A DNA stretch of 64,000 nucleotides, taken from IMG/VR virus record IMGVR_UViG_3300045747_000694, positions 42,165 through 106,164 of that record; one strand, written 5' to 3'. The DNA comes from a virus. How positions within the stretch are numbered: position 1 is the stretch's first letter; each line of letters begins with the position of its first letter. The translations under genes and the position numbers were made by a program. Positions 48,667-52,581 of this stretch are shown in pieces. The notes under the pieces were generated by a model, which was not told the origin of the DNA, made no database searches, and worked only from the letters and a program-made list of their open reading frames with translations.

Positions 48667-49734
48667 CTACTCGATGTCGATGACGCGGCCGAACTGGCCC
48701 GCACGCACCGACCGAATGCCAGCCTGCTTCGCAGTCTCATCCACCGCCAGCTCGGACATCGCGGCGAGAAGGCTACGAACTTCATCCGTGGAGTGATTCA
48801 CCTGCTCCGCGGTGAGCTGCCAGTCGGTCTCTCCATTCCCGCCCTGCTTCAGGAACCGAGCGCGGATGGACTTGATGGTGTCCTCGAAGGTCGAGGTCCC
48901 CGAGAAGTTGACCGCCGAGAAGGTCTCGAAGGCCTCGAAGAGAGGCCGGAGGTTCTTGGGGTTCAGCTTGCCGTTGGTCTCGAGCAACCTCTTGGCCTGC
49001 GAGGCTGCCTCTCCGAGCTGCTGATGCATCATGACGGAGACCTCACTCACCCAGTGGTTGAGGTCCCGCCGCACCCTGTTCTGCTCCTGGAGCAGTGTCT
49101 CGGCATCCAGGGTGGTCATCGACTCCACGCCCTCGAGCGGCGTCATCTTGAACATGCGCCACTCGAAGTTGTACCGGCTACGCAGGTGCGAGACGTCCGG
49201 GTACAGGGTGCGGTTGATGGCCTCCTGCTGCTTCACCCACCCGTCGAGCTCCTTCACCTTCGCGGCGTATGCGTACGGGGCGACCTTGTTGGCCTCCTTG
49301 TCCGCGATGTTGCGCGCCTGCTGGGTGAGCTTCTCGAGCTGCTCCTCCTTGAAGCGAGGGTAGCCCGCGATGAGGTCGTCGACTGCGACGTCCCACTGCG
49401 CCTTGAACTCCTGGAGTCTCCTCAGCACCCCGCGCAGCGCGTGGTAGGAGACGTACTTCGCATTCCCGATGGGGAAGGGAACGGAGCGGTTGTCGAGGAA
49501 CCTCCTCGCATGCCCCTCGATGAACTGGAGACGCTCCTGGGCCTGACGTGGCAGGAGCTTCTTGTGCCCGATGTAGAAGGCACTCTTGTCGACCTCGTCG
49601 ATGAGGAGGTCGCTCTCGTTCATCTTCTTGTTCGCGGTCCAGCGACCGATGTAGAGGTGAAACAGCGTACCGGTGTCAAAGAGAACGCGAGTGATGCCGC
49701 TCTCCTGCCGGACGGACACAGGAGGGTTAGGCAC
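48667..49734 (-). CDS. DUF3150-like protein (355 aa)
   Basis: HLYIGRWTANKKMNESDL...HKKLLP...LQFIEGHARRFLDNRSVPFP pattern recalled from DUF3150. Memory-based assignment. Confidence 0.4.
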   Translation of the reverse strand: MPNPPVSVRQESGITRVLFDTGTLFHLYIGRWTANKKMNESDLLIDEVDKSAFYIGHKKLLPRQAQERLQFIEGHARRFLDNRSVPFPIGNAKYVSYHALRGVLRRLQEFKAQWDVAVDDLIAGYPRFKEEQLEKLTQQARNIADKEANKVAPYAYAAKVKELDGWVKQQEAINRTLYPDVSHLRSRYNFEWRMFKMTPLEGVESMTTLDAETLLQEQNRVRRDLNHWVSEVSVMMHQQLGEAASQAKRLLETNGKLNPKNLRPLFEAFETFSAVNFSGTSTFEDTIKSIRARFLKQGGNGETDWQLTAEQVNHSTDEVRSLLAAMSELAVDETAKQAGIRSVRAGQFGRVIDIE

Positions 49735-49736
49735 CC

Positions 49737-49940
49737 CTACCCCCCGGTGTGCGAGTGATCGTGCGACTCGATCTTCTGGCTGCCCTCGGGCTTCATGTCG
49801 CGCTTCTCCACCTTGCCGAGAGCGTCCTCGAGGGACTTGGTCTCCGCGAGGCAGGCGTTGCCCACGAAGCCACGGGTCGGCTCGGCCTTGACCGTGCCGT
49901 CCTTGGCGATGGTGACCTTGATCTCCTTCAGCGTTGCCAT
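49737..49940 (-). CDS. DUF2997-like small protein (67 aa)
   Basis: IKVTIAKDGTVKAEPTRGFVGNACLAETKSLEDALG pattern. Confidence 0.5.
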   Translation of the reverse strand: MATLKEIKVTIAKDGTVKAEPTRGFVGNACLAETKSLEDALGKVEKRDMKPEGSQKIESHDHSHTGG

Positions 49941-49949
49941 GTTTCCTCC

Positions 49950-50504
49950 TTACAGCGTGATGACCCGGCCGTGCCGGATGCGGGTGTCGTTGCGCTGCGC
50001 TGCCTGAACATCTTCGTCGGAAGCCAGGCGCCGGCGCGGGCCGGTCTGCGCGGGGACTCCGGCGTCCATCTTCTCGAGCTCCTCACCGGCGCGGAAGCGC
50101 CTCATGATCCCGGCCACCTCGCTCTGGATGAGGTCGAGGTGCTTGCAGTGCCGGGGCTTGGGCAGCCCGGTCTCCTTGTCCTTGCGCTGGAAGACCCAAC
50201 CCATGCAGTTGCAGCGCAGGGTCCCGTCTTCCTCGAGGCGCGTCTCGTAGTTCACGATGAAGCCGCCCCTGGGCTGGCTCGAAGCGAACGCCCAGGTGTA
50301 GACCGGCTCCCCGTACTCTCTCTTGGCAGGATCGGTGTTGCTGGTGTCCCTGCCGGTCCTGACACCACGGCGTGGCATGATGATCTTCCTCCTCTGGCGT
50401 GAGGGGAGAGAGGCCGGCACCTCCTCTTCGAAGGGCCGGACCCTCTCCTCGTAGAGCCTGTGCGAGAGGTCGGCGATCTGGTCGATCACTCGCCTTCTCG
50501 GCAT
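49950..50504 (-). CDS. SWIM zinc-finger protein (184 aa)
   Basis: CNCMGWVFQRK...RHCKHL. Confidence 0.6.
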   Translation of the reverse strand: MPRRRVIDQIADLSHRLYEERVRPFEEEVPASLPSRQRRKIIMPRRGVRTGRDTSNTDPAKREYGEPVYTWAFASSQPRGGFIVNYETRLEEDGTLRCNCMGWVFQRKDKETGLPKPRHCKHLDLIQSEVAGIMRRFRAGEELEKMDAGVPAQTGPRRRLASDEDVQAAQRNDTRIRHGRVITL

Positions 50505-50510
50505 GGCTCC

Positions 50511-50939
50511 CTACCCGTAGCGCTGGAAGGTGAGCTCGACCTCGCCGGTCTTGAGCGCCACGCGGTTGGCCACCTGGTACCCCTTCTCGACGCAGTTCTT
50601 CACGGTGACCTTCTCCGCGTAGTACTGCGCGACGAGGTTCTGGTGCTCCATGGGGAAGCCGTCCATGTCGACGTGGACGTCGTACGTCCCCTCCTTGTTG
50701 CGCTCGTAGCCGAGGTCGTTGGACGCCACGTAGCGGCCGAGCTTCTCGCCCTGCGCCGCCTTGCGGACCACGATGTTGGCCTTGAGGTTCGACTTCTGCC
50801 CAGCGTAGTTGAGGAGGTCCACCTTCTTGTCCCCATGGGACTCGACCTTGCCCTCACCGAAGTGCTGGACCAGCGCTGCCACCAGCTCAGCCTCGAACTT
50901 CTGCTGAGCCTGGATGTTCAACTTCACGTAGTGGGACAC
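50511..50939 (-). CDS. DUF1257-like protein (142 aa)
   Basis: MSHY-type N-terminus and overall pattern, in a conserved partnership with DUF2997 and an AAA ATPase. Confidence 0.5.
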   Translation of the reverse strand: MSHYVKLNIQAQQKFEAELVAALVQHFGEGKVESHGDKKVDLLNYAGQKSNLKANIVVRKAAQGEKLGRYVASNDLGYERNKEGTYDVHVDMDGFPMEHQNLVAQYYAEKVTVKNCVEKGYQVANRVALKTGEVELTFQRYG

Positions 50940-50985
50940 TGCGTTCTCCTTTCGTGAGACAGGATGCTACTGCGGGGGTACGACA

Positions 50986-52581
50986 TCAGGCGTCGATGCG
51001 GCGACCAGCGGTGCCGACCTGCGTCTGGGCGACGACCTCCTTGCGATTGGCCGGGCGGGTGCGAGCAGCGCACCAGTTGCGGAGGAGCTGGAGCCTCTCC
51101 AGCATCGTCTTGGCGATGGGCTGCGTGGAGTCGAAGGCGTCCTGGAGGTCCACGGCGTTGAGGTCCCTGCCGTGGTGGTAGGCGACCCGCATGGCCTGCT
51201 CGATGGCTCCGTCGATCTCGGCGCCAGTGAAGTCCTGGCTGGTCTCGCCGGCGAAGTGGTCGAGGTCGATCTTGGGCTTCGCGGTACCGTTGACCTGGTA
51301 GAGCGCCTCCCGGTTGCGCCGCTTGATGTGGATGGCGAGGATCTCCTTCCGCTCCTTCTTGGTCGGGAGGTCGATGGAGAACATCTCGTCGAAGCGGCCC
51401 TTGCGGAGGAGCTCCGGGGGCAGCATCGTCACGTCGTTGGCGGTGGCCACCACGAAGACCGGGCTGGTCTTCTCCTGCATCCAGGTGAGCAGCGTGCCGA
51501 GCACGCGCGCCGAGACGCCGGAGTCACCGGAGCCGCCTGAGGCACCCGCGGCCCCCTTCTCGATCTCGTCGAGCCAGAGGACGCAGGGGGACATCGCTTC
51601 CGCGAGGCGGATGGCCATGCGGATGTTGGCCTCGGAGGAGCCGACGAGGGACTGGTAGAGCTTGCCCATGTCGAGCTTCAGCAGCGGCTTGCCCAGCGCG
51701 GCCGCGGCCACCTTCGAGAAGAGCGACTTGCCGGTGCCGGGAGGGCCGACCAGCAGGACGCCCTTGGGGTACGCCAGGCCGAAGTCGAGCGCCTCCTTCG
51801 TGAAGGCGCGCTGGAGTGGCCGCACCCAGTCCTTCAGCTCCTCCATGCCGCCGATGACCTCGAGGCCGGCGGGCACGTCGCGGATGTACTCGAGCAGCTG
51901 GCTCTTGCGCAGCGCGAAGCACTTCTCCCGGATGACGATGGCCGGGTCCCACAGGTCCTCGAGCTTCCGCTTCCCCTGCTTCCGGGGCTCGATGATGGAC
52001 AGCGTGAAGGCGTTCTCAGCCTCCTGCGTGGTGAGCCCCTTGGCGGCGTCGATGAGGAGCTTCTTGCGGTCCGCATCGGGACGCTTGTCGGCGGTGATGC
52101 CGGAGGCCTCGAAGATGCCGTCCAGCACCGCGGTGAGGCTCTCCTCGTCCGGGAGCGGAGCCTCGAGCAGCGTGATCTCCTTCTCGACCTCCGGCGGCAG
52201 GACGATGACGGGGGAGAGGATGATGATCATCTTCCTCGTCAGCTTCATCTCGGGGATGACGTCCAGGAGCAGCGCCTGCACGTTGAGATCCGGGAGGAAG
52301 TGGTGGAACTGACGGAGGACCAGGATGGAGTCCTGCGGGAGGTCCTTGATCTTCTCCAGGGCGGTGGTCGGCATCCCGGTTCCCGTGAGGGGAGCCGTGG
52401 TGCGCCTGGAGTCCTCGATGATGCCCTTGTTGATGGTCCAGAAGTACATCTTGCGCTTCAGGACGTCCGCCGCCTGGCGGATCTCCCGCAGCGTCCTCTG
52501 GTCCTCGAGGCTCTGGAGGTAGATGGCGGCGTAGCCCGCCTTCCCTCTCACCTCGAGGAGGTCGATCAGCTTCTCGGTCAC
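50986..52581 (-). CDS. AAA+ ATPase, Ycf46-like (531 aa)
   Basis: Walker A GPPGTGKS, Walker B VLWLDEIE, sensor-1 VVATAN, RKGRFD arginine finger. Confidence 0.85.

Follow-up and report, generated by a model that had tools for sequence, protein, structure and literature searches.

A recurrent phage gene module built around a p97-like AAA+ ATPase, with a shared C-terminal tail on several of its proteins

We analysed a 64,000-nucleotide stretch of viral DNA (positions 42,165 to 106,164 of the IMG/VR record IMGVR_UViG_3300045747_000694; hereafter the window), in which five consecutive genes encode an AAA+ ATPase, a DUF1257 protein, a SWIM-like protein, a DUF2997 protein and a DUF3150 protein. The ATPase and the three DUF proteins form a core that recurs in phages and bacterial assemblies, with SWIM-like and SLOG/DprA-like genes as frequent companions. 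The ATPase, the DUF3150 protein and the companion proteins of the window share one short C-terminal tail, a new feature that had been missed by the first-pass annotation of this DNA. Our reading, which we put forward as tentative, is that the module encodes a protein-remodelling ATPase with tail-docked partners, acting in the replication/early gene region. Four families annotated only as DUF or as AAA ATPase travel together in many phages, and the shared, co-varying tail provides a concrete and testable handle on how these parts connect.

The five-gene array

The open reading frames (ORFs) of the array occur exactly where the first-pass annotation had placed them (48667-52581), with the same strand and coordinates, and are followed by a hairpin:

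50986-52581, minus strand: AAA+ ATPase, 531 amino acids (aa)
50511-50939, minus strand: DUF1257 (Ycf35-type) protein, 142 aa
49950-50504, minus strand: SWIM-like zinc-finger protein, 184 aa
49737-49940, minus strand: DUF2997 protein, 67 aa
48667-49734, minus strand: DUF3150 protein, 355 aa
48636-48661: perfect 11-bp GC stem hairpin, putative bidirectional terminator, between the convergent GH108 lysin and DUF3150 genes

The G+C content at third codon positions of the five ORFs (0.88-0.96) is that which coding frames should show at the 64% GC of the window, and the genes are separated by only 46, 6, 9 and 2 bp. Since the start of the AAA gene overlaps the stop of the gene upstream (GTGA), the five genes do not form an isolated operon but close a longer string of leftward genes. 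The hairpin (folding energy -36.7 kcal/mol, z = -3.7 versus shuffles) was missed by a consensus terminator scan because it has no U tract. The terminator announced near 48637 by the first-pass annotation thus corresponds to a perfect GC hairpin; its bidirectional action, which would end transcription of both the lysin and the DUF3150 genes, is presumed from this stem without a U tract.

Two small Cys-rich proteins are encoded directly upstream of the AAA gene on the minus strand, at 52578-52919 (motif CWSC...CPHC) and 52920-53372 (motif CKKHGH..ECEEC). Neither matches Pfam or PHROG, and translation of the first is coupled to that of the AAA gene.

A C-terminal tail shared by unrelated proteins

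A tail of consensus G/F-x-R-x-φ-[D/E]-φ, located at the C-terminus or at most two residues from it, is present on four proteins of the window, including a SLOG/YpsA (YoqJ-like, DprA-related) protein of 410 aa encoded 3.4 kb upstream of the AAA gene:

ATPase: ends ...GTAGRRIDA, tail GRRIDA
SWIM-like protein: ends ...RHGRVITL, tail GRVITL
DUF3150 protein: ends ...GQFGRVIDIE, tail GRVIDIE
SLOG/YoqJ protein (55972-57204, minus strand): ends ...LPGRIIDIED, tail GRIIDIED

The four tails read G-R-x-I-[DT]-x and are all encoded between 48.6 and 57.2 kb, within 8.6 kb. When the 78 likely genes of the window were scanned for the pattern [RK]-x-φ-[DET]-φ within two residues of the C-terminus, four carried the tail for 0.76 expected. 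The motif never occurs on DUF1257 or DUF2997 proteins.

The tail is conserved among homologues of each of these proteins. It occurs in all SWIM-like orthologues. Its strict form is present in 68 of the 77 close DUF3150 homologues, in which the arginine R350 is invariant, and in 62 of 120 ATPase homologues (90 by the loose pattern). Among SLOG homologues, 73 of 120 carry the tail behind linkers that differ wholly in length and sequence, and the compact bacterial SLOG proteins without linker are also without tail. Remote DUF3150 members retain it by the loose pattern in 60 cases out of 107, often in a basic form such as Y-K-R-K-I-x-φ. The tail is kept across GC-rich and AT-rich genomes. Furthermore, the DUF3150 gene of the window is followed by a terminator hairpin and by no gene, so that its tail cannot be the by-product of a ribosome-binding site.

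Genes neighbouring the ATPase gene were compared at 95 loci (related loci are designated L001, L002 and so on below). The tail is found in 15 of 197 neighbours of tail-bearing ATPases versus 5 of 1144 neighbours of tail-less ones (Fisher p=1.6e-9), and three of these five come from the single locus L008, whose ATPase ends in TRVVES. At L023 (3815-7323), in a bacterial assembly from the rumen, six or more paralogous genes in tandem encode ComEA-type HHH_3 proteins of ~212-233 aa, each with an end of the form ER-x-[LIV]-D-[LI]; a radical-SAM Fer4_12 gene comes next, and then an AAA gene ending in GRTLDF. Likewise, at an Amycolatopsis locus (L059), a helix-hairpin-helix (HhH) protein ending in VRQLDI accompanies an ATPase ending in GRTIDV.

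The tails of the ATPase and of its partners also vary together from lineage to lineage:

L106: ATPase LRSMEI; partner LRALEI
L102: ATPase RRKISI; partner KRKIKMD
L104: ATPase DRLVADN; partner GRLVG
L009: ATPase RAATLDL; partner RASMLEL
L008: ATPase TRVVES; partners KRIVEL, KRIVEL and KRIVEV
L098: ATPase GRKVGT; partners GRTLYL and GRKLKV, the acidic residue being lost in all three

For the ATPase and DUF3150 tails, this co-variation is supported by a permutation test (p=0.0025) on ten hand-anchored pairs, several of which come from related lineages.

Conservation of the module in other genomes

The five genes occur in identical order at L006, L007 and L016, with AAA identities of 96%, 48% and 46%, respectively. 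Other loci contain subsets or rearrangements of the same genes, so that the grouping noticed by the first-pass annotation is indeed syntenic in other genomes:

L008: AAA-DUF1257-SWIM-DUF2997
L098: AAA-DUF1257-SWIM-X-DUF2997
L017, a 195-kb contig in an NCBI assembly: AAA-DUF1257-DUF2997-X-DUF3150
L009, L011 and L012: DUF3150 upstream of the ATPase
L065 (Planctomycetota metagenome-assembled genome, MAG) and L092 (Thermoflexales MAG): all four core genes in shuffled order
Cultured phages RHph_I4, HJ05, RcTiptonus and JP1: AAA, a protein X of ~210-250 aa, DUF1257, DUF2997
L102/L103: AAA-DUF3150-DUF1257-DUF2997
L104: DprA-like...SWIM...DUF3150-AAA-DUF1257-DUF2997
L106: ATPase and DUF1257
L107: ATPase split by an intein, with a DUF1257 gene at the locus edge

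The last four entries derive from a profile search of 1.84 billion representatives that returned 1800 DUF3150 proteins, from which seven remote loci were inspected. In four of the seven, DUF3150 adjoins an ATPase of this family; at L105 there is no such ATPase within the 7 kb of sequence, and for the other two the contigs are too short to judge. DUF3150, described by the first-pass annotation as a protein that follows the other genes, is present as stated, and it is a recurrent core partner even in distant lineages, not an add-on. A tblastn search with the DUF3150 protein against cultured-phage and plasmid collections gave no match, and at the DNA level the region matched phages only over 158 bp of the AAA core. 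The ~210-aa protein located between AAA and DUF1257 in RHph_I4, HJ05 and JP1 was considered as a SWIM protein and rejected, having neither the CxC...CxH motif nor a Pfam match.

The module is hosted by jumbo phages, by viral contigs of 56-75 kb, by contigs of ~200 kb and by bacterial assemblies of Actinobacteria, Planctomycetota and Chloroflexi. The cultured carriers of the AAA-X-DUF1257-DUF2997 arrangement infect Rhizobium (RHph_I4), Aeromonas (HJ05), Rhodobacter (RcTiptonus) and Agrobacterium (JP1). At every locus inspected, the module lies amid genes for replication, recombination, nucleotide metabolism or early functions; its neighbours include ribonucleotide reductase (RNR), ligase-like, SLOG/DprA-like, RadC, PDDEXK, SbcCD-like and replication-O-like genes. 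Genes of the IS605 OrfB/TnpB type stand directly beside the AAA module at L098 (6346-7584) and L104 (12373-13515).

The ATPase, DUF1257 and DUF2997 had been described in the first-pass annotation as a recurrent trio of cyanobacteria and some phages. This holds for phages and only in part for cyanobacteria. The canonical cyanobacterial Ycf46 loci that we inspected have no adjacent DUF1257 or DUF2997 gene detectable with our own hidden Markov models (HMMs), no DUF3150 and no tail; DUF1257 genes, two of them in L041 and L052, stand beside AAA genes at only some cyanobacterial paralogue loci, and one lies farther off in L071. The cyanobacterial genes for DUF2997 and DUF1257 (ycf35) cluster with fed7, and the ATPase is not part of this cluster (PMC4284462).

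In the phage Corndog, the ATPase gp96 ends in KVRVLDL, and gp95 has GRAIDFE and YALDFEEVV near its end. Corndog gp95 and gp93 were tried as DUF3150 and DUF2997 candidates, respectively, and discarded after negative hhalign comparisons (probabilities 0.04% and 2%).

The ATPase

The ATPase belongs to Pfam AAA (PF00004; 4.3e-30, 105.3 bits versus a cut-off of 21.2; Pfam assignments were judged throughout against the curated gathering cut-offs) and matches phrog_8638 at 2.5e-129. A sequence search of the PDB matched it best to the D2 domains of VAT, p97 and Cdc48. Residues ~226-512 constitute a classic-clade AAA domain with intact catalytic motifs, predicted to be active: the Walker A motif GPPGTGKS (279-286), the Walker B residues D338-E339, the sensor-1 residue N382 and the arginines R393/R396 are invariant among aligned homologues. 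The AlphaFold2 (AF2) model, built on 69 homologues (predicted local distance difference test score, pLDDT, 89.6), suggests that residues 1-225 fold into a second, D1-like α/β-plus-lid domain, which has no Walker A or B motif; the protein has no p97-type N domain. Foldseek aligns this model over ~550-570 columns with the D1-D2 tandem of p97, Cdc48, NVL, Rix7 and AFG2 (query-based TM-score, TMq, ~0.6). The C-terminal tail is disordered in the model. Pore loop 1 reads S-L-V-G and does not fit the aromatic-hydrophobic-Gly pattern; the corresponding sequence is L-V-G in most relatives, Y-V-G in Corndog and F-I-G in RcTiptonus.

The ATPase had been called Ycf46-like, and JGI labels its homologues 'SpoVK/Ycf46/Vps4 family'. 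It shares 35-37% identity with cyanobacterial Ycf46-type proteins over residues ~14-514 (tblastn; Fischerella, Tolypothrix and Prochlorococcus loci). This full-length similarity shows homology but does not establish orthology: the family name stands at the level of the protein, and the neighbourhood of canonical Ycf46 genes differs, as described above.

At the distant locus L107 (3966-6977), the intein that splits the AAA gene comprises Intein_splicing and LAGLIDADG_3 domains, and an intein domain is also present in P0085, an 809-aa close homologue of the ATPase.

The partner proteins

The names DUF1257, DUF2997 and DUF3150, given at first from sequence motifs, were all confirmed by Pfam above the gathering cut-offs, and three of the module proteins fall in PHROGs of unknown function. 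The absence of an established function, noted in the first-pass annotation, agrees with the literature that we found on these families; a full-text search with the three DUF names and their accessions returned nothing on phages or mechanism.

The DUF1257 protein matches PF06868 (3.8e-9, 37.1 bits versus 22.2, profile positions 16-103 of 103) and phrog_20456, and its gene comes after the AAA gene in most related loci. DUF1257 proteins (those of the window, L001-L017, L098, L102, L104 and L106) nearly always start with M-S-H, Ser2 being near-invariant and His3 common; this conserved start could be a metal-binding or a processed N-terminus. The DUF2997 protein matches PF11211 (4.8e-14, 52.4 bits versus 24.1) and phrog_23133, and its alignment exhibits a single invariant cysteine (C30) and a KPE motif. 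We rejected the idea that it is a ubiquitin-like protein, the GG ending seen in the window being matched only in L006 and L012.

The DUF3150 protein matches PF11348 (1.9e-11, 44.2 bits versus 24.9), the match spanning only profile positions 5-161 of 257, and its homologues are also precomputed as PF11348. Its AF2 model (pLDDT 84.6) is a long helical bundle with a small sheet, a fold common to other phage DUF3150 proteins, for which a fold search of the PDB gave no informative match.

The protein inserted between DUF1257 and DUF2997 had been described as a SWIM zinc-finger protein. It has no Pfam match even at E<=1, the gathering score of PF04434 not being reached; its L008 orthologue scores 11.9 bits (E 0.17) against Pfam SWIM. 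The motif C98-N-C100...C120-K-H122 is present, and the CxCx(n)CxH residues (C98, C100, C120, H122) are invariant in four orthologues, including those of L007, L008 and L016; a homologue also occurs in L098. Aligned over the motif with a second SWIM protein of the window, it gives a moderate profile match (hhalign E 2.6e-4, probability 43%). These features make "SWIM-like" a fair label for the gene at 49950-50504, with membership in SWIM proper not proven. The second SWIM protein, reported at 46555, passes Pfam SWIM barely:

46555-47073, plus strand: SWIM protein, 172 aa, in the lysis/structural block (4.6e-4, 20.1 bits versus 19.6, borderline)

It is conserved in L006 and L016, carries no tail motif and is probably outside the module.

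The SLOG protein matches Pfam YpsA (PF06908; 2.3e-16, 60.7 bits versus 27.7) and DNA_processg_A (1.6e-8, 34.4 bits versus 29.6). A search of viral contigs with this protein returned a near-identical contig only.

A possible remodelling machine and its alternatives

What the sequences and models establish is the family assignments, the conserved grouping of the genes, the modelled two-domain fold and a tail that is conserved, enriched near tail-bearing ATPases and co-varying; docking, its receptor, the substrate and the biological role are inferred. The five genes would encode a phage protein-remodelling machine, whose motor would be the p97/Cdc48-type ATPase with its degenerate first ATPase-like domain and active second one. 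By analogy with its family, the ATPase may assemble into a ring that pulls on its protein substrates. DUF3150, DUF1257 and DUF2997 would be its constant partners, complemented by nucleic acid-related accessories that vary with the lineage: the SWIM-like and SLOG/YoqJ proteins in the window and ComEA-type helix-hairpin-helix proteins elsewhere.

Because the same tail is found on the ATPase and on unrelated neighbour proteins, behind flexible linkers, and co-varies by lineage, we propose that it is a docking peptide by which the ATPase, DUF3150 and the accessories would plug into one common receptor site. DUF1257 and DUF2997, being constant and tail-less, would be the most economical candidates for this receptor, with the ATPase ring as an alternative. 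The position of the module amid replication, recombination, nucleotide metabolism and early genes suggests an action on DNA-bound proteins early in infection, and the job of the machine might be to remodel or remove them. In a more specific version, DUF1257 and DUF2997 would form a hub whose pockets hold the tails of the ATPase ring and of changing DNA-binding clients (DUF3150, SWIM-like, SLOG/YoqJ and HhH proteins), a proteasome-like docking made of unrelated parts that many phages would use early to remodel or clear DNA-bound proteins; we regard this version as distinctly unlikely.

If tail docking does occur, it would represent a new code for cofactor recruitment by a p97-like ATPase in viruses and provide the first functional context for DUF1257, DUF2997 and DUF3150; the unexplained Ycf46 and Ycf35 proteins of cyanobacteria and plastids might become easier to understand as well.

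Several points weigh against the proposed machine. The docking of the tails is proposed from a sequence pattern, and the AF2 monomer models, in which the tails are disordered, give no information either way on docking in cis. The pairs used for the co-variation test are hand-anchored and not fully independent. The L-V-G pore loop does not assure a strong unfolding activity. Neither in the module nor in its neighbours was a peptidase family detected, and adjacency to replication genes is circumstantial for a role on DNA. Finally, the tail-bearing loci L005 (Corndog) and L018/L019 have no detectable DUF1257 or DUF2997, which weakens the version with these two proteins as receptor.

The same machine could instead act in anti-defence or host takeover, by stripping the incoming phage DNA of host defence or nucleoid proteins or by inactivating these. 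The L102/L103 module has RadC, DUF2958 and Lar restriction-alleviation genes around it, and an integrase lies farther along the locus, a typical early/anti-restriction mix; moreover, the accessories differ between lineages and can be present as several paralogues (HhH in L023), as genes engaged in an arms race would. However, no known anti-defence family was detected, PADLOC giving generic AAA matches only, and the neighbours are RNR, ligase-like and SLOG genes in the window and in L017, and replication-initiator-like genes in RHph_I4 and HJ05. The present data do not decide between service to replication and counter-defence, and we consider the anti-defence role, taken by itself, unlikely.

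C-terminal peptides are classic recognition signals of AAA+ proteins, as exemplified by the ssrA and MuA tails for ClpX. The tail might accordingly be a degradation or timing signal (degron), read by the pore of the ATPase or by a host protease, that would limit the lifetime of early proteins; its disorder in the models and the resemblance of the basic variants RRAVKL, NRKLKL and KRRLRLS to MuA-type tails would fit such a signal. This explanation is quite improbable: the ATPase bears the tail itself, ATPase and partner tails co-vary within lineages, which is not expected from a universal host protease, and at the loci inspected the module has no linked peptidase gene.

It is highly improbable that DUF1257 and DUF2997 are a redox or metal/Fe-S unit, with the ATPase aiding the maturation of a cofactor or radical enzyme for nucleotide metabolism. 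A ferredoxin or radical-SAM neighbour is missing in most loci, the lone cysteine is not a cluster-binding site, and the tails on DNA-binding proteins would be left unexplained. Speaking for such a unit are the invariant cysteine of DUF2997 and the N-terminal Ser-His of DUF1257, the class II RNR near the module in the window, the radical-SAM Fer4_12 genes that adjoin the AAA gene in L023, L059 and probably L013, and the clustering of DUF2997 and ycf35 with the ferredoxin gene fed7 in cyanobacteria (PMC4284462).

That there is no functional unit at all, the genes being neighbours by common descent and the tails alike by chance or composition, is extremely improbable: several loci do come from a single jumbo-phage lineage and the motif is short, but linkage is kept across very different genomes while gene order is permuted, neighbour tails are strongly enriched (p=1.6e-9) and the tail is conserved behind hypervariable linkers.

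Genomic setting of the module

The gene content of the window resembles that of a large phage genome, and the window is a piece of a phage-like genome of ~150-200 kb. Among public sequences, its closest relative is a 198-kb IMG/VR contig encoding an ATPase 96% identical to that of the window, and its SLOG protein is 100% identical to one encoded on a 153-kb JGI contig. Besides many small genes without family match, the window contains:

1625-7705, plus strand: probable tail fibre of 2026 aa, with collagen triple-helix repeats and, at its C-terminus, a Peptidase_S74 chaperone domain
7702-8826, plus strand: radical-SAM protein (phrog_1802), directly after the collagen/S74 gene
14081-14926, plus strand: GGDEF diguanylate cyclase domain protein (1.8e-35)
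26239-27492, minus strand: transposase-like gene (phrog_10081)
40645-41070, plus strand: Cpn10/GroES-like gene in the structural block (2.2e-9)
57206-58600: ligase-like gene
59300-59704, minus strand: stand-alone response-regulator receiver domain protein, between the ligase-like gene and the RNR gene (5.7e-23)
59705-61864: class II B12-type ribonucleotide reductase

The related 195-kb contig has a Cpn10 gene as well (L017, 20265-20660). The window further encodes, at 30687-33332 on the minus strand, a major-vault-protein-like (MVP-like) protein of 881 aa (Pfam MVP_shoulder 2.5e-27 and Vault_3 2e-9). An MVP-like shell was considered as receptor of the tails and found unlikely, the tail being present on the Corndog ATPase and in viral contigs of 56-75 kb, with no vault-like gene in the genome stretches inspected (no whole-genome search was made).

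Comparison with known systems

The p97/Cdc48/VAT segregases are the closest in sequence and fold: they are classic-clade AAA proteins, give the best matches of both kinds and have two stacked ATPase-like domains, a layout that the AF2 model suggests for the module ATPase too. Cofactors of p97 use the UBX, SHP, VIM and VBM motifs, and PUB/PUL domains bind the C-terminal tail of p97. The module resembles this system in that a single short linear motif appears to serve several partners unrelated to one another. It differs in that the first domain of its ATPase has lost the Walker motifs, the double-psi-barrel N domain is missing and the pore loop is L-V-G; in addition, its motif lies at the extreme C-terminus and is carried by the ATPase as well, and none of DUF1257, DUF2997 and DUF3150 is related to a known p97 cofactor.

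The logic of a shared C-terminal tail inserted into one receptor is that of the HbYX/GQYL-tailed activators of the proteasome (PAN/Rpt, Mpa, Blm10/PA200 and Bpa) and of HslU on HslV, docking being proposed here. The module tail is R-x-φ-[D/E]-φ, not Hb-Y-X, and no 20S, HslV or ClpP-like peptidase was found beside the module. The flexible linker and short basic-hydrophobic tail of the adaptor SspB, whose XB peptide (...LRVVK) binds the N domain of ClpX, offer another parallel, the SLOG/YoqJ proteins having the same layout of linker and tail; ClpX is from another ATPase clade, and the module ATPase is itself tailed. None of these motifs (HbYX, SspB XB, p97 motifs) is a sequence match to the module tail.

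Ycf46, known from the slr0374/Synpcc7942_0417 stress operon, together with the ycf35-DUF2997-fed7 cluster, provides a homologous ATPase and the same DUF1257 and DUF2997 families. The three-gene context of the stress operon is not found around the module, the neighbours at canonical loci differ and the canonical proteins lack the tail. The cyanobacterial literature ties Ycf46 to stress, CO2 use and KaiC, not to phage biology.

The AAA domain also matches IetA of the IetAS defence system (PADLOC 2.8e-23; NCBIfam IteA 6.8e-21). We rejected an Iet-like defence function, as only the generic AAA core is matched (74.8 versus 510 bits for NCBIfam), the module has no IetS-like protease and the context is that of a phage, not of a defence island.

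Set beside these systems, the module could be an AAA+ remodelling machine with motif-tethered partners, an assignment that we hold with some reserve; what the analysis adds is a four-part module of wide occurrence, in which a docking-type tail is shared and co-varies.

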